Part shown: positions 3,204-11,943 of the stretch, piece by piece | Layout of the letters: the number at the start of each line of letters is the position of its first letter | Position numbering within the stretch: position 1 is the first letter of the stretch | From: an archaeon | Lineage (GTDB): Archaea > Iainarchaeota > Iainarchaeia > Iainarchaeales > CSSED10-239 | Length of the DNA stretch: 15,014 nt | Direction: 5' to 3' | Assembly (NCBI GenBank): GCA_035387745.1 | Contig: DAOOON010000004.1 | Location: 1-15,014 of the forward strand | Notes under the pieces: generated by a model | Told to the model about the DNA's origin: nothing | The model's input: only the letters and a program-made list of their open reading frames with translations | Database searches by the model: none | Made by a program: the position numbers and the translations under genes

Positions 3204-3947
<744 letters not shown>

Positions 3948-4002
3948 CTTGTTTCACCTTTATTAAAAAAATAGATAAAATTGTCGAAATTTATCTTTAT
4001 TG

Positions 4003-4010
4003 TATATAAA
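4003..4010 (-). promoter_or_regulatory. TATA box candidate for rpl10e
   Basis: The minus strand reads TTTATATA about 59 nt upstream of the ATG, leaving a ~30-nt leader that contains the GGTGA SD. A 7-bp hairpin (AGATAAA/TTTATCT, about 3973..3998) lies between them. Confidence 0.35.
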
Positions 4011-4073
4011 TATATTTATATAGAAACATATTTAAATAAAACATTTTAATAATTTTAAAAAAAACTAGAATAT

Positions 4074-4240
4074 AGAAAGGAAAAAGAGGCCTTTTTGCAG
4101 GTCTCCTTTCTCTTTATTACATTTCTTTTGGGGAAAGAAAAGTTTTTGGGGTAAAACACCTCAAAAATGTAATATAAGAAAGAAAAGAACAGGGACCTGT
4201 TCTGGTAAACAGTGTGTTTCTCTTCTTCCTCTTTTCTGCC
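4074..4240. ncRNA. Candidate structured RNA of unknown class in a 474-nt intergenic region
   Basis: Three consecutive hairpins. (1) AGAAAG/CTTTCT (4074-4079 with 4106-4111) enclosing GAGGCC/GGTCTC (4086-4091 with 4100-4105). (2) A 10-bp stem (4115-4124 with 4165-4174) enclosing TTGGGGT/ACCTCAA (4146-4152 with 4158-4164). (3) AGAACAG/CTGTTCT (4186-4192 with 4197-4203). A pyrimidine run at 4217-4237 is complementary to the purine runs at 4074-4089 and 4177-4188. There is no ORF. Strand is ambiguous: both imperfect stems become G-U wobbles only on the plus strand, but on the minus strand hairpin 1 is followed by T5, as in a terminator. Confidence 0.3.
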
Positions 4241-4421
4241 TTGTATTTTATTCTTTGTGGAATTTGGTAATAGATTTAACTGTTATATCTTATAGTCCTA
4301 AAATCTTTATATATACTACCGGGTGGTTTTTCCAAACCTAAACTAGAAAAAGGGTTTGATTAGCAAAATATACATAATAAAATGTTTGTTTTTTTGAGGT
4401 TTTTAACTCTTTTTTGCAAAT

Positions 4422-4781
4422 TTACCAATTTAACTTGTCGCCAATAGAGAAGAGCTTTTTGCCATATTTTGCAGGAAGTTCTATAATATAGCGACATTTA
4501 TCTCTTGGCTTTGTCATCTGCCAAGGCTTAAGCCCAAGCTTGATATCTATAATCTTCTTCTTAGAATCTAAAAACACAACATTTATTGGAAAAAACACAA
4601 AAAACATGTGTATGCTTGCACCAATATGCGTATCTCTTTCAAGATCAAATATCAGGCCATAATCAAAGTTTTTCTCTCTAGAAAACATTAGACCCTTTGC
4701 TCTACTAAACACATTGTCTGCAATCCTGTGAGTTGCTATAATATTTTTTTTCTGCGAGATGTTTCTAATCATATTAATCAT
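4422..4781 (-). CDS. DUF192 (COG1430/UPF0127-like) protein
   Basis: 119 aa. The pattern ADNVFSRAKGLMF...IHMFFVFFPINVVFLDSKKKIIDI...CRYIIELPAKYGKKLFSIGDKL matches the DUF192 layout as I recall it (GLM...M...PLDxxFxD...YVLEL..G....I.GD). It is the last gene of the minus-strand block, 10 nt after the preceding gene. Confidence 0.6.
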   Translation of the reverse strand: MINMIRNISQKKNIIATHRIADNVFSRAKGLMFSREKNFDYGLIFDLERDTHIGASIHMFFVFFPINVVFLDSKKKIIDIKLGLKPWQMTKPRDKCRYIIELPAKYGKKLFSIGDKLNW

Positions 4782-4791
4782 TATATTTTAA

Positions 4792-5919
4792 TTATTTGGA
4801 TAACCCAAAGGTTATAACAAATTCATTGTCTTGCTGTTTTGTAATCTTAAAATCATAAAATGCTGGTTCATTAACAAGTATTGTATAGGTTTTACAATCT
4901 GTTAAACAATTTGAATCAATAAATGAAATATTAATTCTGGTAGACTCTAGAATATATTTAGAACTAATTGTCTTTAAAGCAATGATGTGCCTCATTTCTA
5001 CTTCTGTCTTGTTGTTTTTTATCATATATTCCATTGTATCAATAATTATTTCTTCTGCATCTGGCTTAGGAATAAACGTCTGAAATAAAACGATAGTAAC
5101 AACAAATAAAATAAAAACATATTTTATAAAATTTAAACCTCTATCTTTTTTTATAATATACATTACATACGAGGTAAATCCCCCTAAAAGTAAAGCAATA
5201 TACAAGATAAAATTATCAAAAAAAGTTCTAGTAATTATTTCCTCTGTTGAATACCACAAAAAATTACTACCAATAATGTGGTCTATATACAATAATACAA
5301 AAATAAAGATAAAATAAAACAAAACAGATAAATAAAACAAATTAGAAAAATATATTTTATTCTTAGACTCGCTTCTAAAAAGAAGTAAATCTTTAGATAC
5401 GTTCTCAAGTATTTTATCATAATCAATTGTTGATTTTTTTAAAACATCTATTATTATTAGAGTGTGCTCAATCACAGAACTGTTAATGTTTTTATTTATG
5501 GAATATAATGATTCTTCAAAGCTTTCACCCCAAGAAACTCTATTTGAAAGCCTCTTTATTTCTGGATTAATATTGCCGTAAAAATTATATTCTGACAGAT
5601 TAGATAATGCCAAAGATAAGTTTCTTGTTTTTTTATACTCTTTTGATAAATCATACAAAAAATAATTGAATTCGGTTTCTACAGATTTTCTTTTTTCGGT
5701 TTTTATGTAGTATTCTATTAAAAACCCTAAGCCCCCTACAAAAATCCCAGAAATAAAAACTATAAAATAGATATTGCTTGCTGCAAAATATTTGTTAGCT
5801 ATGGCTATAATTAAAAGACCACAAACAATTCCTGCTAATTCTAATATAGAATATTCATTATTATAAAAAAAAATATTTGCTTTCTTAAAAAAATCATTTT
5901 CTTGAGGATTTATAATCAT
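4792..5919 (-). CDS. Polytopic membrane protein, single T2SS-F (FlaJ/ArlJ/TadC)-like domain plus ~90-aa C-terminal non-membrane domain
   Basis: 375 aa: two N-terminal TM helices, a ~115-aa soluble helical segment (ETEFNYFLYDLSKEYKKTRNLSLALSNL...WGESFEESLYSI...VIEHTLIIIDVLKKS), three further TM helices, then a soluble tail containing SNCLTDC. It lies downstream of the FlaI-like gene as the second of two membrane-protein genes. The family call rests on topology and context only. Confidence 0.5.
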   Translation of the reverse strand: MIINPQENDFFKKANIFFYNNEYSILELAGIVCGLLIIAIANKYFAASNIYFIVFISGIFVGGLGFLIEYYIKTEKRKSVETEFNYFLYDLSKEYKKTRNLSLALSNLSEYNFYGNINPEIKRLSNRVSWGESFEESLYSINKNINSSVIEHTLIIIDVLKKSTIDYDKILENVSKDLLLFRSESKNKIYFSNLFYLSVLFYFIFIFVLLYIDHIIGSNFLWYSTEEIITRTFFDNFILYIALLLGGFTSYVMYIIKKDRGLNFIKYVFILFVVTIVLFQTFIPKPDAEEIIIDTMEYMIKNNKTEVEMRHIIALKTISSKYILESTRINISFIDSNCLTDCKTYTILVNEPAFYDFKITKQQDNEFVITFGLSK

Positions 5920-5923
5920 TCAC

Positions 5924-6766
5924 CTATTTATGTAATATTAAAACCAATATAATTTCAACTATTGGAAAAGCAATAGCTATAATAAATAATATATTTTTTA
6001 TAGAGTCCCTATAAAAAGGCATTAAAAAAACACTAAATATCAATATGAAAATTAAGAAAAACAAAAATATGTTTATTTCAAAAAGCAAAGTAATTTTGCT
6101 TCTTTTCCTTTCTTCTTTCTCTTTTCTTAATTGATCTGTAGATTCCAGATAATCTGAAATTACATTAGATAGTGTTGTTTTATTTTCTAAAACATCTATT
6201 AATTTTGAGAAAAAATTATATTCTTGCTCTGAATAAGTGCTATTACAAATTTGTTTTAATGTTCCCTTTAAGTTGTTATTTAAATCAGACATTGCTAATA
6301 TTTTTTTTGATTTTTCAGTTAATAGTTTATTACTTCCAATTTTTTGAAATAAATATAAAACATCTTTAACGCTCATCTTTTGATCTTGTAAAACCGATAA
6401 ATGCCTTATACTAATTTCTAATTCGTGCTCTAATTCCTTTTTGTTTGATGTAATTAAATAATGTGGATAGCGATATAAAGTCATAAAAATAAAACCTGCA
6501 AAAGTAAATGCAATAATAATTGTTAAAACAAACGTAAAAACCGAAAAGAGGATGTTCAATTTAAGCATTACAAAAATCATAAAAAATTCTAAACAAATGC
6601 CCACAAGAAAAGACAAGAATAATGTATTAGATATATAGGTTTGAACATCTTCTTCTATGTTAGTTATAACAAGCATTTTTGTTAGTTCTTTAAACTTAGG
6701 CGCGATGCTTTTAGAAATATCTGAAAAAAAAAAATTAGATATTTTTGATAGTGTTTTACCAAACAT
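5924..6766 (-). CDS. Polytopic membrane protein, single T2SS-F (FlaJ/ArlJ/TadC)-like domain
   Basis: 280 aa: two TM helices, a ~125-aa soluble helical segment (ELEISIRHLSVLQDQKMSVKDVLYLFQKIG...LKGTLKQICNS...FFSKLIDVLENKTTLSNVISDYLES), then two TM helices. It starts 21 nt after the FlaI-like gene, the canonical flaI-flaJ order. An AGGAG SD is present. Confidence 0.55.
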   Translation of the reverse strand: MFGKTLSKISNFFFSDISKSIAPKFKELTKMLVITNIEEDVQTYISNTLFLSFLVGICLEFFMIFVMLKLNILFSVFTFVLTIIIAFTFAGFIFMTLYRYPHYLITSNKKELEHELEISIRHLSVLQDQKMSVKDVLYLFQKIGSNKLLTEKSKKILAMSDLNNNLKGTLKQICNSTYSEQEYNFFSKLIDVLENKTTLSNVISDYLESTDQLRKEKEERKRSKITLLFEINIFLFFLIFILIFSVFLMPFYRDSIKNILFIIAIAFPIVEIILVLILHK

Positions 6767-6787: not shown

Positions 6788-9307
6788 CTACTCCAAAATA
6801 TTTAATTTTTTTAATAATTGCTTTTTGTTATTGTAATAATCGTTAACTATATTATTAAAATCAGTACCATCTGTTATCCCCGAATCGACTAACCATCGGA
6901 GTAACTTTTTGTGATTAAAAAACTCTGATGTGCTTATTGCTGAGGACTCTAGATTAATCTTAAAATCGGAATCCTTTTTTGAATAATAGATTACGTCATT
7001 ATCTTTTCCGTTGCTTATTTCTAATATCTTAATAATTTGCATTTGTTCAATATTGTTTATTTTTGTTCGTTCTAGACTTATTATAATCGCTTTCCTATTA
7101 ATTGCTTTTGCCTTTTCTGAATATTTTGGCAGCAACTCCTCTGGCAGATAAACCATTGAAAAATCATACCATTTAATATCAAATAAATCTTCAGAGAAAT
7201 TATCTAAGATTAAATAATCTGATCTTTGAGAAAGCGTTTGAGAAATTATGGTCTTTTTATTTGATGCAATGTTATCTAGTAATAATTTCTTAATCCAATT
7301 CTTTTGTGGCAGTTTTATATAATCAAAGGACTGTATGCTAGTGATTGTTTTATCTGGATAAAATTGAGCCAATGCAGAAATAAACAAATTTGCATCTCCT
7401 CCGGTTATTAATATTTGAAAATCGTCATCCATTGCAGTCCAAATATAAGAATATATATCGGTTATGCCTATTCCTAAATTTATAAGGCTTACGGGAGTTA
7501 ACGGTTCTTCTAAATATTTTTTAATAATAAATGAAGACCCTCTATTGCTTATGTCGCCTACAGAATATAGGCCTTCTACTTTGTAGCCATTAGGCAAATA
7601 TCCATTTATTATTGGCTGAGCAGAATTAACTTGTAACCCCATTATTTTTGTTAAAGAAAGAACAAATTGATTTAGTTTAAATAGATTTTCAAATTTAAGA
7701 TTTGTCTCAATTGCCCCATACTTTAAGTGGTATACGATTATTGGCATATTCTCGCCAGAACAACTAATCTCTATTATATTTTTATCTTCTAAAATGGTCG
7801 ACAAAAAACCAAAACCTAAAAAGTCCCTTTTAATAAAATTAAAATATAATTTTTTTTCTAAATCTGTTAAATTATAAGACAATTTGTCAATAGTTAAATC
7901 AAATACTTTCTTAATATAGTTATTTAGATTTTGTTTATCACCTTTAAAGGAGGTGTAATTTGAATCAATAGAATCCAAGAAAATCTTTTTAATTTCGACA
8001 TATGTTTCTTCTTGAGATTGATTAAGTTCTGGCTGAATTACACTATATACTAATCCCTGAGACATCATGTAATTTATATTCACAAAAGTAAATTCATCGA
8101 TATTATATTTTTCGGAGATATTTATTTTATCGGTTTCAGATATTTGAGGTTTGACACTATAAACTTTAGTTATAGAACTGGATTGTTGAACACATGGTTT
8201 GTCTATTGTTTCTTTGGTAATTCTAGAAATTGCGGTTTTAGATAATGTTCTTTCTTCTGCATCTTTTGGCAACACATAATCAAAGGATGTTTTTTGCGAA
8301 ACTTTGGTTTGATTTGGTTTTTCTTCAATTAGAGATTTTTCTTTTATTTCATTATTATCAAAAGAAAGGTCTGGAACAACAATATCTTCAATATAATTGT
8401 CAATATTTAACTTTGGCTTCTCTGATTTTGCTTTCTGCTGTTCTTTTTTATAATTACTAATATTATTATCGATATTTTTATTGGTATTTATTTTGCCATT
8501 ATCCAAAATAAATGTTGACTCCCTTATTTTTTTTGTTGGAGGAATTTGCTCGTAAGTTGAAAATCCTTTATTTACTGCTTCTGAAATATTTGTATCATCT
8601 TTAATTGAAAAAATTTCTGGGACTTCTATTTCTTCAAGTAAAGCATAAATGTTATTAGTATTTTTTTGATCTTCTTTATTCTGTTGTTCTCCATTATATT
8701 GTGATTCTTCTTTTTTAATTTTTTTCTGGTTTATAACTTTTGTTTCTATTGCATCTAGTTTTGCATAAAGATGAGAGACGCCTGTATCTTTTATTGCAAT
8801 CTTTTTAATTTTGGGGTCATCATCTAAGAAACTAATTGATTCGAAAAATGGTTGTTCATCCTCTACTTTATCTGTTTTTTCTTCTAATGCTGTCAATAAA
8901 AAATCCACTTCCGGAGTATCTTTCTCTACTACATTTTCTAAATTAGTAATAGTAATTCTTTCTGCAATATCTTGTAATTTATTAGATATCACTTCTAGTC
9001 TTTTCTTTTCAACTTCCAATCTTAATGCATTTTCAACATATTCCCTTGGAGTAATTGTTTCAATTGTTGGATAATTAGATTCTGAATTATTTTCATGTGT
9101 TTTTGTTTCTATTTTAAAATTTCTAAATTCTTCTTTTTTTTCCGAAACATTGTGTAATTTTAACTTTGGAAGACTACCTACTTTGTTCTGATAGCTATCT
9201 GGAGGAGTATTATCTATAGAAATATTAAATTTTTGTGTGAGTGTTTTTTCTATTTTTTTTGGATCGCTATTATCATTAATCCTAGACAACTTTTTTAGTT
9301 CTACCAT
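6788..9307 (-). CDS. FlaI/ArlI-family (archaeal type IV filament assembly ATPase, T2SS-E superfamily) homolog with degenerate nucleotide-binding motifs and long N-terminal extension
   Basis: Residues ~415-839 follow the FlaI layout: VYSVIQPEL, LYFNFIKRDFLGFGFLSTILEDKNIIEISCSGENMPIIVYHLKYGAIETNLKF, NSAQPIINGYLPNGYKVEGLYSVGDISNRGSSFIIKKY, EPLTPVSLI, SYIW, and C-terminal LLRWL...VNDYY. The Walker A position reads GGDANLFIS (7376..7402), where GxxxxGK[ST] is expected. Confidence 0.85.
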   Translation of the reverse strand: MVELKKLSRINDNSDPKKIEKTLTQKFNISIDNTPPDSYQNKVGSLPKLKLHNVSEKKEEFRNFKIETKTHENNSESNYPTIETITPREYVENALRLEVEKKRLEVISNKLQDIAERITITNLENVVEKDTPEVDFLLTALEEKTDKVEDEQPFFESISFLDDDPKIKKIAIKDTGVSHLYAKLDAIETKVINQKKIKKEESQYNGEQQNKEDQKNTNNIYALLEEIEVPEIFSIKDDTNISEAVNKGFSTYEQIPPTKKIRESTFILDNGKINTNKNIDNNISNYKKEQQKAKSEKPKLNIDNYIEDIVVPDLSFDNNEIKEKSLIEEKPNQTKVSQKTSFDYVLPKDAEERTLSKTAISRITKETIDKPCVQQSSSITKVYSVKPQISETDKINISEKYNIDEFTFVNINYMMSQGLVYSVIQPELNQSQEETYVEIKKIFLDSIDSNYTSFKGDKQNLNNYIKKVFDLTIDKLSYNLTDLEKKLYFNFIKRDFLGFGFLSTILEDKNIIEISCSGENMPIIVYHLKYGAIETNLKFENLFKLNQFVLSLTKIMGLQVNSAQPIINGYLPNGYKVEGLYSVGDISNRGSSFIIKKYLEEPLTPVSLINLGIGITDIYSYIWTAMDDDFQILITGGDANLFISALAQFYPDKTITSIQSFDYIKLPQKNWIKKLLLDNIASNKKTIISQTLSQRSDYLILDNFSEDLFDIKWYDFSMVYLPEELLPKYSEKAKAINRKAIIISLERTKINNIEQMQIIKILEISNGKDNDVIYYSKKDSDFKINLESSAISTSEFFNHKKLLRWLVDSGITDGTDFNNIVNDYYNNKKQLLKKLNILE

Positions 9308-9383: not shown

Positions 9384-10124
9384 CTAAATAAAAGAGGTGG
9401 CGAAATTACCTAAGAGTGAAAGCACATTAAAATAGGTCAATACGGAAACAATAGCATAAGCAATTGTTAGTATTAATACAAAAGGAACTAATGGAGATAC
9501 CCATATTTTATCTATGCGATGAATTTTAGAAAACTTCTTTAATTCATATATTTGCTGTTCTGGAGAACAATTTGGTTTTATTGTTGTTTTAGAAATAACT
9601 TTATTATTTACCAATTTATATTCTTCTAAAGGGGTATAAAAATTAGTTAATTTATTTATTGCTTTTGGAAAGCCAAAGCTCATTAAAATTAAGCTTTCTC
9701 CTAATGGCTTTTTAGGGAAATTGCCTTTAATTGTATTGTAAATTAAAAACAAAATTGGGAAAAACAACGTTAAAACCGTAGACATTAAAAAGACTAGCCC
9801 TGTAAATAAAACAGAAATACCACTAATAAAACTCATTGTCATTAATGCAATAAGGTCCCCTTCCCCAATATATGCATAAACTGTAAATTTTCCTAATACA
9901 TAGATGATGGTTAAGAATGCAAAAGATATTGCGATCTGTAAAATATACATATATAAAAAACCTTTAATTAAACCAAAAAAAATATAATATGCAAAACCAA
10001 TTGCAGAAATAACTAATAATGGTACAATATTTATTTCTCTGTATTTTAAATCTTGATATCCCAAATAAATAAAACAAATTAAACCTATTAAAAACATAGG
10101 GAAAAATATAATGCTCATGCTCAT
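9384..10124 (-). CDS. A24-family prepilin/preflagellin (class III signal) peptidase
   Basis: 246-aa polytopic membrane protein. The first catalytic Asp context is GYQDLKYREI (D25) and the second is IGEGDLIAL (GxGD, D90). A ~60-aa soluble insert lies between the TM blocks, as in FlaK-type enzymes. Its ATG overlaps the upstream gene's TGA stop (ATGA). Confidence 0.8.
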   Translation of the reverse strand: MSMSIIFFPMFLIGLICFIYLGYQDLKYREINIVPLLVISAIGFAYYIFFGLIKGFLYMYILQIAISFAFLTIIYVLGKFTVYAYIGEGDLIALMTMSFISGISVLFTGLVFLMSTVLTLFFPILFLIYNTIKGNFPKKPLGESLILMSFGFPKAINKLTNFYTPLEEYKLVNNKVISKTTIKPNCSPEQQIYELKKFSKIHRIDKIWVSPLVPFVLILTIAYAIVSVLTYFNVLSLLGNFATSFI

Positions 10125-11095
10125 CTCTTTTCTTCTTTTTCTTTAATTGGCTTCTTTTCTTTTATTTTTTTTGGTTTTTTCGTTTGAATTGCTGTTTTAG
10201 TCAAATGAATTAAATCATCATATGCTTTTCTTTTTGTTATCCTTGCAGTTGATCTTTCAAACAATTGATCAGTGTATTTGCCTGGTGGGCCAAAAGAAAC
10301 AATTTGCTTTTTTAAAATCTTATTTAGTATTGCTTGATTTTGTAAAGTGTTATTTGTTTCATCAATTATTGATTTTGGTAAATCTATAGTCAAAACTCCA
10401 CTACCAATTCTGTCCACATAGTTTGTACCAGAGCCAGCAGTAACAAAATTGGCCATTTGCGCTAACTTAATGGTTGCTGAAAATTTATAAACTAAATCGT
10501 AGCTTTTCTGGTCAATCTTTTGATTTAACCTATCTGCTGTTTTTGAAATACCGGCAATATTAAAGGCTTTGTGTTTTTGTACATACCATAAGAAGTCCCT
10601 AAGGGTTTTTATAAAAAATGAATCATACATATAATAAGTAATGTAGCCCATCATGCCATTATAGCCTTCGACACCAACATTCTTTTCTTTTATAAACTTC
10701 TCTAATTTTGATAATCCCATTAAATAGCTTGCTGAGTTATTTATCAAACCAAAAGGGTGGGCAATCACAAAAAGGTAATCCTTCCTCTCACACATATCAT
10801 AGATTCTTCTCATCGAAACATTCTCTTCAAAAAAAACATTATAACTATAGATGTCTTCGTTTGGGGCATAAACTAAAACTTCTCCCTGATCTGTAGAAAT
10901 GGTTATTCCCGGAATCAAGATGTTTGCTTTTGGTTTATCTTTTAACAAATCAAAATATGCTTTCTTTGGATTTTTCTTTGCGTTTTCAGTGATTGCAGTT
11001 CCTAGAAGATTATTCTTGTTAGCAAACTGCCAGTATCTTTTACTTGACTGCTTTCTTTTTAGAAACTGCGTATTTAAATCTAAGTTATATGACAT
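10121..11095 (-). CDS. PHP-domain-like protein with substituted metal-ligand positions and Lys-rich C-terminal tail
   Basis: 324 aa. Its segments line up by eye with the PHP motifs: LDLNTQF (DLHxHT), AITEN (TDH), ILIPGITISTDQGEVLVY (GxEis...Hxl), FVIAHPFG (AHP retained), VGVEGYNG (iEvxN) and TAGSGTNYVDRIGSG (GSDAHxxxxxG). The tail is KKPKKIKEKKPIKEKEEKR. The assignment is from memory of the family pattern. Confidence 0.45.
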   Translation of the reverse strand: MSYNLDLNTQFLKRKQSSKRYWQFANKNNLLGTAITENAKKNPKKAYFDLLKDKPKANILIPGITISTDQGEVLVYAPNEDIYSYNVFFEENVSMRRIYDMCERKDYLFVIAHPFGLINNSASYLMGLSKLEKFIKEKNVGVEGYNGMMGYITYYMYDSFFIKTLRDFLWYVQKHKAFNIAGISKTADRLNQKIDQKSYDLVYKFSATIKLAQMANFVTAGSGTNYVDRIGSGVLTIDLPKSIIDETNNTLQNQAILNKILKKQIVSFGPPGKYTDQLFERSTARITKRKAYDDLIHLTKTAIQTKKPKKIKEKKPIKEKEEKR

Positions 11096-11104
11096 ATTTT
11101 TCTT

Positions 11105-11731
11105 TTATTTTTTTAAATTTACTCTTGCATCGACTATGTAGATTTCTTTTTCTGTTAGAATTACTGGATTTAGATCAATCTCTTGAAGATGCTTGTCTTT
11201 GCTCAACTCGCAGACTTTTTCTAGTAAGGAGATTAGCTTTGAGACAGGATAGTTCTTTCCTCTTGCAGAAAAGTACCTACTTACTTTTGTTGTATAAACC
11301 ATAACTTCTATTTCTTTTTTTGTTATTGGTAAAAGTCTTATTGTAGTGTCATCTTGTAATTCAGTGTAGATACCACCTTGGCCAAAGACTATAACTTTTC
11401 CAAATTGAGCATCATTGTTTATTCCTATCAATAACTCAAGGCCTTTAACTTGCTTTTGAATAATTACTTTGCCTTTTACTTTCTCTTTTTTTAGAACTTC
11501 TTGAAGCTTTTCAAAGGCATCTATGAACGCTTCTTTTGTGTAAATTTCTGTGTAAACTGCTTTACTTTCAGTTTTATGTACAAGAGAAGAACTAAGTTTA
11601 AGTACATATGGAAAATCCGAAAATCTTTCTATATCTTTTTTTAAAAGTTCTTTAGATTCTAAAATTGCAATATTTTTTTGTTTTAGATATTTAAAAGAAT
11701 CCTCTAAGTTAAGCCAAGCCATTTTTTTCAC
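11105..11731 (-). CDS. ATP-grasp domain protein resembling the beta subunit of ADP-forming acetyl-CoA synthetase (AcdB-like)
   Basis: 208 aa: FPYVLKLSSSLVHKTESKAVY (family PVVLKixSxxixHKsdxGGV), IIQKQVKGLELLIGINNDAQFGKVIVFGQGGIYTELQDD, and EIDLNPVIL...IVDARV at the C-terminus. No alpha/CoA-binding subunit is in the window. Confidence 0.65.
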   Translation of the reverse strand: MKKMAWLNLEDSFKYLKQKNIAILESKELLKKDIERFSDFPYVLKLSSSLVHKTESKAVYTEIYTKEAFIDAFEKLQEVLKKEKVKGKVIIQKQVKGLELLIGINNDAQFGKVIVFGQGGIYTELQDDTTIRLLPITKKEIEVMVYTTKVSRYFSARGKNYPVSKLISLLEKVCELSKDKHLQEIDLNPVILTEKEIYIVDARVNLKK

Positions 11732-11943
11732 TTCTTTTTATAAAAATAATGTTTAAAAACCCATATATACTATAAATATATATATTATAAATATATCTAA
11801 ATTCTTATAAAAGTTTAGATTCTAGAAATAGAACACAGGTTTTAAAATCATTGTGTTTTACTATTTTATTATTATATTTAAAATGTATCTAATTATAGAC
11901 ACATCTTACAAAAAAAAATACAAAAATAAAGGAGAGAAATAAA

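Follow-up and report, generated by a model that had tools for sequence, protein, structure and literature searches.

A phylum-wide family of P-loop-less secretion-ATPase homologues encoded beside prepilin peptidase and platform genes in Iainarchaeota

An 839-amino-acid (aa) protein encoded on a 15,014-bp iainarchaeal contig (DAOOON010000004.1, analysed here over its full length and referred to as the window) is a pseudoenzyme derived from the secretion-ATPase family. It belongs to a phylum-wide, selectively maintained family of P-loop-less derivatives of afGspE/PilB/FlaI-type ATPases, and its gene stands between genes for a prepilin peptidase and a split T2SSF-type platform. The explanation that we prefer, with a probability of about one half, is that this pseudo-ATPase is a catalytically dead but functional paralogue, a scaffold or adaptor that sits without nucleotide on the platform of a type IV filament machine, with power supplied in trans.

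Fold homology to the superfamily of ATPases from type II secretion systems, type IV pili, archaella and type IV secretion systems is clear and far above chance. The top match in a phmmer search against all chains of the Protein Data Bank (PDB) was afGspE (2oap; E 1.2e-39, query residues 477-702), and the archaellum ATPase FlaI was matched over residues 387-703 at E 2.8e-26 (4ii7; 4ihq likewise, at about 3e-26). AlphaFold2 (AF2) modelled residues 395-839 from the family alignment with a predicted local distance difference test (pLDDT) score of 89.4 and a predicted template modelling (TM) score of 0.86. Foldseek against the PDB again ranked afGspE first (2oap; E 2.7e-34, TM-score 0.83 over the whole 445-residue model), followed by FlaI with TM-scores of up to 0.73 and then by CpaF, VirB11, PilT and PilB. 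The two-lobed fold is thus predicted with confidence to be retained.

Models of the active enzymes recognize the protein poorly. Even at E ≤ 10, Pfam T2SSE (PF00437) matched neither the whole protein nor its 395-839 core nor three relatives, and the sole Pfam match was a weak one to PilB3_C over the C-terminal helices (residues 798-835). The NCBIfam FlaI model NF058587 reached 119 bits, where its cut-off is 550, with model positions 23-355 of 527 covered. Since both the catalytic hallmarks (see below) and these Pfam and NCBIfam thresholds are failed, the protein should not be filed as FlaI/ArlI or as a T2SSE ATPase. The original prediction had assigned it to the FlaI/ArlI family; the homology to secretion ATPases stands, whereas the archaellum assignment does not, as afGspE is the best match, NF058587 stays far below its cut-off and no archaellum genes lie nearby. 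By these comparisons, the protein is closer to pilus ATPases of the afGspE/PilB type than it is to the motor of the archaellum. JGI labels proteins of the family 'VirB11/archaellum biosynthesis ATPase' or 'FlaI', names that wrongly imply motility or an active motor and that annotators should treat with caution.

For lack of a PF00437 match, the motif columns were read from the HMMER alignments to 2oap and 4ii7 and from a family alignment that included two intact relatives (P0021 and P0022). At the Walker A position, GETASGKTT is replaced by GGDANLFIS, exactly where the original prediction had put it, with a three-residue gap precisely over SGK (ivvGEtaSGKTTtlnA versus ilitGGdan---lfisA); in the AF2 model, the P-loop is reduced to a three-residue turn between strand 631-635 and the subsequent helix. 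The Asp box, SIEDTrEIkL in the family, aligns with SIQSFDYIKL, as had likewise been proposed. The Walker B motif RPDYIIVGE(I/V)RG aligns with RSDYLILDNFSE, in which the GE of the family has become DN (SQRSDYLILD aligned to RQRPDYIIVG, with the region reading DYLILDNF); here the replacement had been recognized correctly, and the coordinates given for it (7187-7222) were one codon off. The segment that carries the His box (TGH...T.HA) in P0021 and P0022 is deleted, in agreement with the prediction that no TGH-type His box is present. The window protein holds no [ST]GH at all, and the single SGH among the family representatives checked (in P0149) lies off the His-box position. The arginine of the IRKF motif in the N-terminal domain (NTD) is a lysine (IIKKY) in the window protein and throughout the family. 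Neither GK[ST], as predicted, nor [AG]xxxxGK occurs anywhere in the 839 residues, so that no functional GxxxxGK[ST] is to be found elsewhere in the protein. All nucleotide-handling motifs of the secretion-ATPase family are thus lost, and the protein would be unable to bind or hydrolyse ATP in the manner of the family.

One could suppose that the protein is still an NTPase or a nucleotide sensor through a non-canonical site. The C-terminal domain (CTD) is under purifying selection, and the Walker B segment of some relatives keeps an acidic residue (LDE, e.g., RPDYIILDE), although GE is kept in none. However, GxxxxGK[ST] is absent from all of the approximately 40 family members, in which the P-loop is physically deleted down to the short turn, the losses extend to the Asp box, the His box and the arginine of the NTD, and no alternative GK[ST] is available; we consider such an activity very improbable.

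The reading frame is uninterrupted, as originally predicted, and its start codon is supported by the N-termini shared across the family (MVELKK or close variants such as MVEIKK and MVILEK). An identical 839-aa protein is encoded on 12 independent contigs from NCBI, JGI, ENA and Logan assemblies; the window contig itself is also present as ENA ERZ761564 NODE_4656, and the NCBI accession of the window protein is HOZ35583.1. The approximately 40 relatives with the same motif losses represent 18 or more GTDB species within the Iainarchaeota/Diapherotrites (DPANN). A word-indexed protein search recovered 20 clusters with 37-79% identity and lengths of 790-920 aa, and a profile search against 1.84 billion representatives returned about 18 family representatives (50% level) above 260 bits, all without a P-loop. 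Below the family, profile scores fall abruptly to genuine ATPases at ≤243 bits: the P-loop is present in 126 of the 150 proteins listed by this search and in none of the family representatives. In a distribution scan with one genome per GTDB species (18 loci, including Ca. Iainarchaeum, 'ainarchaeum sp.', Ca. Diapherotrites and the complete genome of Ca. Forterrea multitransposorum), the gene was a single uninterrupted ORF in each locus unless cut by a contig end.

Every part of the protein, including the dead domain, is under purifying selection. Between the window and its closest relative (L010), the ratio of nonsynonymous to synonymous substitution rates (dN/dS; Nei-Gojobori method, dS 0.66-0.92 and not saturated) was 0.21 for the N-terminal extension, 0.087 for the NTD and 0.106 for the CTD. 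Across 20 sequences of the family, the NTD (residues 401-625) is the best-conserved part with a mean identity of 0.69 and 61 of 225 positions invariant, followed by the C-terminal helices 791-839 (0.55; 7 of 49), CTD residues 626-790 (0.51; 18 of 165) and the N-terminal extension 1-400 (0.35; 14 of 400). In the full-length AF2 model, pLDDT is below 50 across most of residues 1-378; a few predicted helices (87-120, 134-148 and 178-204) and a hairpin (154-171) fall on islands of conserved sequence. The islands in the family alignment read MVELKK, ISFLDDxPKIxKI, VSxLYAKID and IEEIEIPEIxSIKDDT, and the N-terminal extension looks like a disordered tether bearing short conserved motifs.

These data also bear on whether the gene is merely a decaying pseudogene or an assembly artefact. 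Two observations point in that direction. At five sites that never vary among the 19 other aligned sequences, the P0002 protein of the closest relative has substitutions of its own (F454N, V549I, G590R, Y598N and Q668H), a weak hint of relaxed constraint, and the ENA contig L060 holds a P0002-type gene in three pieces. The latter was rejected as a sign of decay, because the contig has a coverage of only 2.6x and many housekeeping neighbours, TrkA, the beta-CASP RNase and nucleoside diphosphate kinase (NDK) among them, are broken too, so that the breaks are assembly errors. With the identical protein on 12 contigs, uninterrupted ORFs in the 18 species loci except at contig ends and a dN/dS of about 0.1, decay or artefact is effectively refuted. 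The original view of a conserved inactive paralogue is instead borne out by relatives that share the same losses and by dN/dS values of 0.09-0.21.

Three further proteins deserve mention beside the family. P0163 (824 aa, 223 bits) is more distant, has a K/E-rich N-terminal extension and likewise lacks Walker A and B, which suggests a wider, older or second pseudo-ATPase lineage. P0162 (1154 aa) consists of two complete intact ATPase modules fused in tandem in one polypeptide. The orthologue of Ca. Forterrea multitransposorum (CP045477.1; L029:9074-12460) has a much longer N-terminal extension, with a stop-to-stop frame of 1129 codons. The Forterrea genome paper reports a misassembly by repeats inside a 'secretion-related ATPase' (PMC5905446), and this repeat region may be the N-terminal extension of the pseudo-ATPase.

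The pseudo-ATPase gene is part of a tightly packed cluster on the minus strand that reads, in order of transcription, 324-aa protein, prepilin peptidase, pseudo-ATPase, T2SSF_a, T2SSF_b and DUF192 (Table 1). The flaI-flaJ-like order noted originally is thus present, with two T2SSF genes downstream and the peptidase upstream. The peptidase keeps both catalytic-type aspartate motifs, QD25LKYREI and GEGD90 as read from its sequence, in which D25 and D90 would be the catalytic positions known from FlaK. From the peptidase to DUF192, this order is found in all species loci examined, including Forterrea, as far as the contigs reach, and in locus L022 it is kept despite rearranged flanks; the peptidase adjoins the pseudo-ATPase in those loci whose DNA reaches upstream of it. 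The exception is the P0002 lineage (79% identity), in which both T2SSF genes are cleanly missing: the peptidase is retained and DUF192 follows 72 nt after the pseudo-ATPase (L009/L010/L015:12502-12574, the counterpart of window positions 4792-6766). The 324-aa gene, which may be the first of the operon, precedes the peptidase in most species loci extending that far, not in L022 or L024, and its product had no match in Pfam, NCBIfam or PDB; a tentative reading of the product as PHP-like was discarded. Archaellum genes (ArlH, ArlF/G, ArlC/D/E or ArlX, archaellins) were found neither among the window genes nor within ±10 kb around the relatives.

Table 1. Features of the pseudo-ATPase and its gene cluster in the window
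Feature	Position (nt)	Strand	Residues or length	Description
Pseudo-ATPase gene	6788..9307	-	839 aa	N-terminal extension followed by a FlaI/GspE-type NTD and a degenerate RecA-like CTD
N-terminal extension	8108..9307	-	1-400	K/E/N-rich, mostly predicted disordered, conserved islands
NTD	7433..8107	-	401-625	Homologous to afGspE/FlaI NTD; best-conserved part
CTD and C-terminal helical tail	6791..7432	-	626-839	Degenerate RecA-like; PDB homology, family alignment, AF2/Foldseek
Walker A equivalent	7376..7402	-	636-644	GGDANLFIS; SGK deleted; HMMER alignment to 2oap and 4ii7, family alignment
Asp-box equivalent	7310..7339	-	657-666	SIQSFDYIKL; aligned to SIEDTrEIkL
Walker B equivalent	7190..7225	-	695-706	RSDYLILDNFSE; aligned to RPDYIIVGE(I/V)RG; GE to DN
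324-aa protein	10121..11095	-	324 aa	Conserved; stop overlaps peptidase start by 4 nt
Prepilin/preflagellin peptidase	9384..10124	-	246 aa	FlaK/PibD-like; Pfam Arc_PepC_II E 3e-10; NCBIfam FlaK_Arch 43 bits (below cut-off)
Platform half a (T2SSF_a)	5924..6766	-	280 aa	Pfam T2SSF E 2e-8; NCBIfam ArlJ/FlaJ model positions 6-243 of 555 (N-terminal half)
Platform half b (T2SSF_b)	4792..5919	-	375 aa	T2SSF-like; Pfam T2SSF E 2e-5, just short of cut-off
DUF192 (COG1430)	4422..4781	-		Pfam E 2e-15; last gene of conserved cluster

According to the original prediction, the dead protein is the only ATPase-like gene in a type IV filament locus. This holds for the locus and not for related genomes, which also encode an intact ferredoxin-fused T2SSE ATPase together with two TadC-like genes; the paradox of an unpowered machine is thereby removed, and the machinery is probably not unpowered. 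The clearest case is L022 (39% identical pseudo-ATPase), where an intact 596-aa ATPase (10080-11870) directly follows DUF192 on the same contig. It combines an N-terminal Cys-rich 4Fe-4S ferredoxin domain with a complete set of motifs (GNTGSGKTT, VEEVREI, RPDRVVIGEIR and TTFHS), and another pair of small TadC-like genes comes after it, along with a gene for a VTT/DedA protein. Homologues of this ferredoxin-fused ATPase (Pfam Fer4 families, T2SSE and PF27713) are numerous in Iainarchaeota and other DPANN. They usually form a separate module of phosphoribosyl pyrophosphate synthetase, ferredoxin-fused ATPase, two T2SSF genes and VTT/DedA; in the further loci L033:8001-9782, L046:9001-10788 and L054:6001-7701, the TadC-like pair and VTT/DedA always follow the ATPase. 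The enzyme could be a redox-sensing pilus motor.

Both genes also occur together elsewhere. The metagenome-assembled genome (MAG) CAYXAY01 carries the pseudo-ATPase on contig 4 (L016) and an intact ATPase on contig 6 (L046), and another MAG encodes HRS42799.1 (pseudo-ATPase) and HRS42581.1 (intact). For the closest relative, the P0002 pseudo-ATPase (HNW05581.1/HPV66543.1) and the intact P0294 (HNW06044.1/HPV66356.1) were recovered from the same two NCBI MAGs, and both were assigned by size match only to one 813,239-bp JGI contig. Three more lineages have both genes, again by contig-size match only (63384, 57584 and 41531 bp); the P0016 and P0066 loci do not overlap, and their same-contig case rests on size match and a shared sample. 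The intact ATPases from these co-occurrence cases all keep Walker A, Walker B and the N-terminal Cys-rich domain. A scan of JGI metagenomes for the intact ATPase with unspecific back-translated patterns gave at least six loci, with the 813-kb contig not among the matches listed. A word-indexed protein search with the C-terminal 440 aa returned seven fragments, none of them from an intact paralogue. A negative inference about co-occurrence drawn from 'longest_contig' values was dropped, as these values describe the cluster representative only. The search for an intact paralogue proposed with the original prediction was thus successful in relatives (L022, CAYXAY01 and the closest relative) and not for the window organism.

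How would a dead paralogue contribute to such a machine? In this superfamily, the NTD moves against the CTD, and both together contact the platform and partner proteins, as known from work on PilB and FlaI. In the explanation that we prefer, the strongly conserved NTD would dock the pseudo-ATPase on a platform protein, the long disordered N-terminal extension with its short motifs would recruit partners, and the protein would act as a nucleotide-independent scaffold or adaptor, while energy for pilin extraction and filament assembly would be supplied in trans by the intact ferredoxin-fused ATPase. The pseudo-ATPase would be at most an accessory subunit of the type IV filament machine. A role linked to the intact machine is favoured, not proven, because the P0002 lineage has lost the adjacent platform genes and kept both the pseudo-ATPase and the intact module, and because the two modules are adjacent in L022.

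Several points weigh against this explanation. No intact ATPase was located for the window organism, whose assembly could not be searched as a whole: the candidates P0063, P0073, P0076 and P0077 come from neither its samples nor its assembly (GCA_964645375.1). Homology does not imply a direct partnership, since the pseudo-ATPase is afGspE-like and the intact ATPase, of the TadA/CpaF/VirB11-like kind, is from a different subfamily. Hexamerisation of FlaI is nucleotide-dependent, and a P-loop-less protein may form no ring. The radical changes of P0002 at invariant sites could indicate that the protein depends on its own platform genes and not on the other module. No pilins with a class III signal peptide were detected in the window when its ORFs of at least 35 aa were scanned with a simple pattern. 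Finally, the wider flanks (NMD3, beta-CASP RNase, ATP-grasp, uL16, methyltransferase and NDK) are collinear among these genomes in general, so that much of the flanking synteny is plain collinearity, carries little functional meaning and is no proof of a functional link.

Some of the same evidence would fit an autonomous, repurposed membrane complex of pseudo-ATPase, split platform, peptidase and DUF192 that no longer builds a dynamic filament and works without the ferredoxin-fused ATPase. Such a complex might anchor the cell statically to other cells or a host, or it might regulate or chaperone the prepilin peptidase. Conservation extends to the cluster as a whole, which lacks pilins, the two ATPase types are of different subfamilies and their modules lie far apart in most genomes, and the pseudo-ATPase keeps its place beside the peptidase even after the loss of the two platform genes. 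Yet the modules are directly adjacent in L022, the platform genes retain their T2SSF domains and no specific alternative function is indicated, and we regard an autonomous complex as possible and on balance somewhat unlikely. A more speculative form of the scaffold hypothesis, which we hold to be doubtful, is that the protein, as a ring or cap without nucleotide, sits permanently on its own split platform and serves either a redox-sensing, ferredoxin-fused pilus motor as its stator, clutch or docking hub or a static DPANN attachment structure as its cytoplasmic base. If true, the PilB/GspE/FlaI superfamily would have its first natural 'dead motor' subunit.

In the type IV filament machines known to us, ATPases of the PilB/GspE/FlaI family are the engine. 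A dead paralogue kept throughout a phylum next to genes for a prepilin peptidase and a platform suggests that the fold also has a non-enzymatic task, for example as scaffold, stator or regulator, and offers a clean natural system for separating the structural from the catalytic roles of these ATPases. It is also relevant to the way in which DPANN archaea with small genomes make surface structures, through which cells may come into contact with one another. The original prediction knew of no dedicated dead secretion ATPase, and our full-text literature searches likewise turned up no description of a P-loop-less member of the family; a census of archaeal type IV pili mentions neither inactivated nor ferredoxin-fused ATPases (Makarova et al. 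2016; PMC4858521).

The window is otherwise very AT-rich (GC 0.23-0.35) and encodes housekeeping functions, including uL16, NDK, NMD3, the beta-CASP RNase, a thioredoxin and TrkA. A stand-alone 208-aa ATP-grasp_5 protein (11105-11731, minus strand; E 3.5e-37) is encoded upstream of this cluster in many, not all, species loci and probably reflects collinearity rather than a component of the system. The uL16/L10e protein (3204-3947, minus strand) ends in a tail of about 75 residues rich in Lys, Ala, Pro and Thr (GKGATPAKGATPAKGAAPAAPAGKAATPAKKK), which resembles histone H1-like or low-complexity nucleic-acid-binding tails; the tail of the L022 orthologue is similarly K-rich. Two intergenic stretches, 3948-4421 (about 470 nt) and 602-1469 (about 870 nt), are unusually long for a compact genome. 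Scans for tRNA genes and Rfam families had no match in either, a tandem-repeat scan gave nothing relevant, and related contigs have a called 47-aa ORF at the equivalent of 602-1469.

Among known systems, afGspE of Archaeoglobus fulgidus (2OAP) is the best match in both sequence (E 1e-39) and structure and shares the NTD, the CTD and the C-terminal helices with the window protein. However, afGspE has GETASGKTT, an Asp box, the Walker B GE and a His box and binds AMP-PNP, whereas the window protein is without these motifs, has a shorter CTD and adds a 400-aa N-terminal extension. FlaI/ArlI (4II7, 4IHQ; NF058587) is homologous over residues 387-703, with TM-scores of up to 0.73, and has the order of ATPase and then platform in common with the window; in contrast, the window locus is without ArlH, ArlF/G, ArlC/D/E/X and archaellins, and the catalytic motifs of FlaI/ArlI are absent from its protein. 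ArlH/FlaH, an ATP-binding, poorly hydrolysing RecA/KaiC-like partner of ArlI (PMC5019145), offers a functional analogy only, as a non-motor member of the RecA superfamily that modulates the real motor of a type IV filament machine. ArlH is of the KaiC-like family, keeps Walker A and binds ATP, whereas the window protein is a derivative of the motor family without a P-loop. The ferredoxin-fused T2SSE ATPases (L022:10080-11870, P0294 and P0065) share the superfamily with the window protein, are encoded in the same genomes and likewise have two small TadC-like genes behind them. They differ in being intact (GNTGSGKTT, VEEVxEI, RPDxVxIGEVR and TTFHA), with a 4Fe-4S domain and a Pfam T2SSE match, in a different subfamily and usually at a different locus. 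Non-catalytic paralogues are also part of other ring ATPases, such as the clamp-loader delta-prime 'stator' and the non-catalytic subunits of F1 and V1. These are unrelated families, and a mixed ring with the window protein is not indicated by the present data, but they share with it the concept of a paralogue of a P-loop NTPase that has lost catalysis and become a rigid structural or regulatory subunit.

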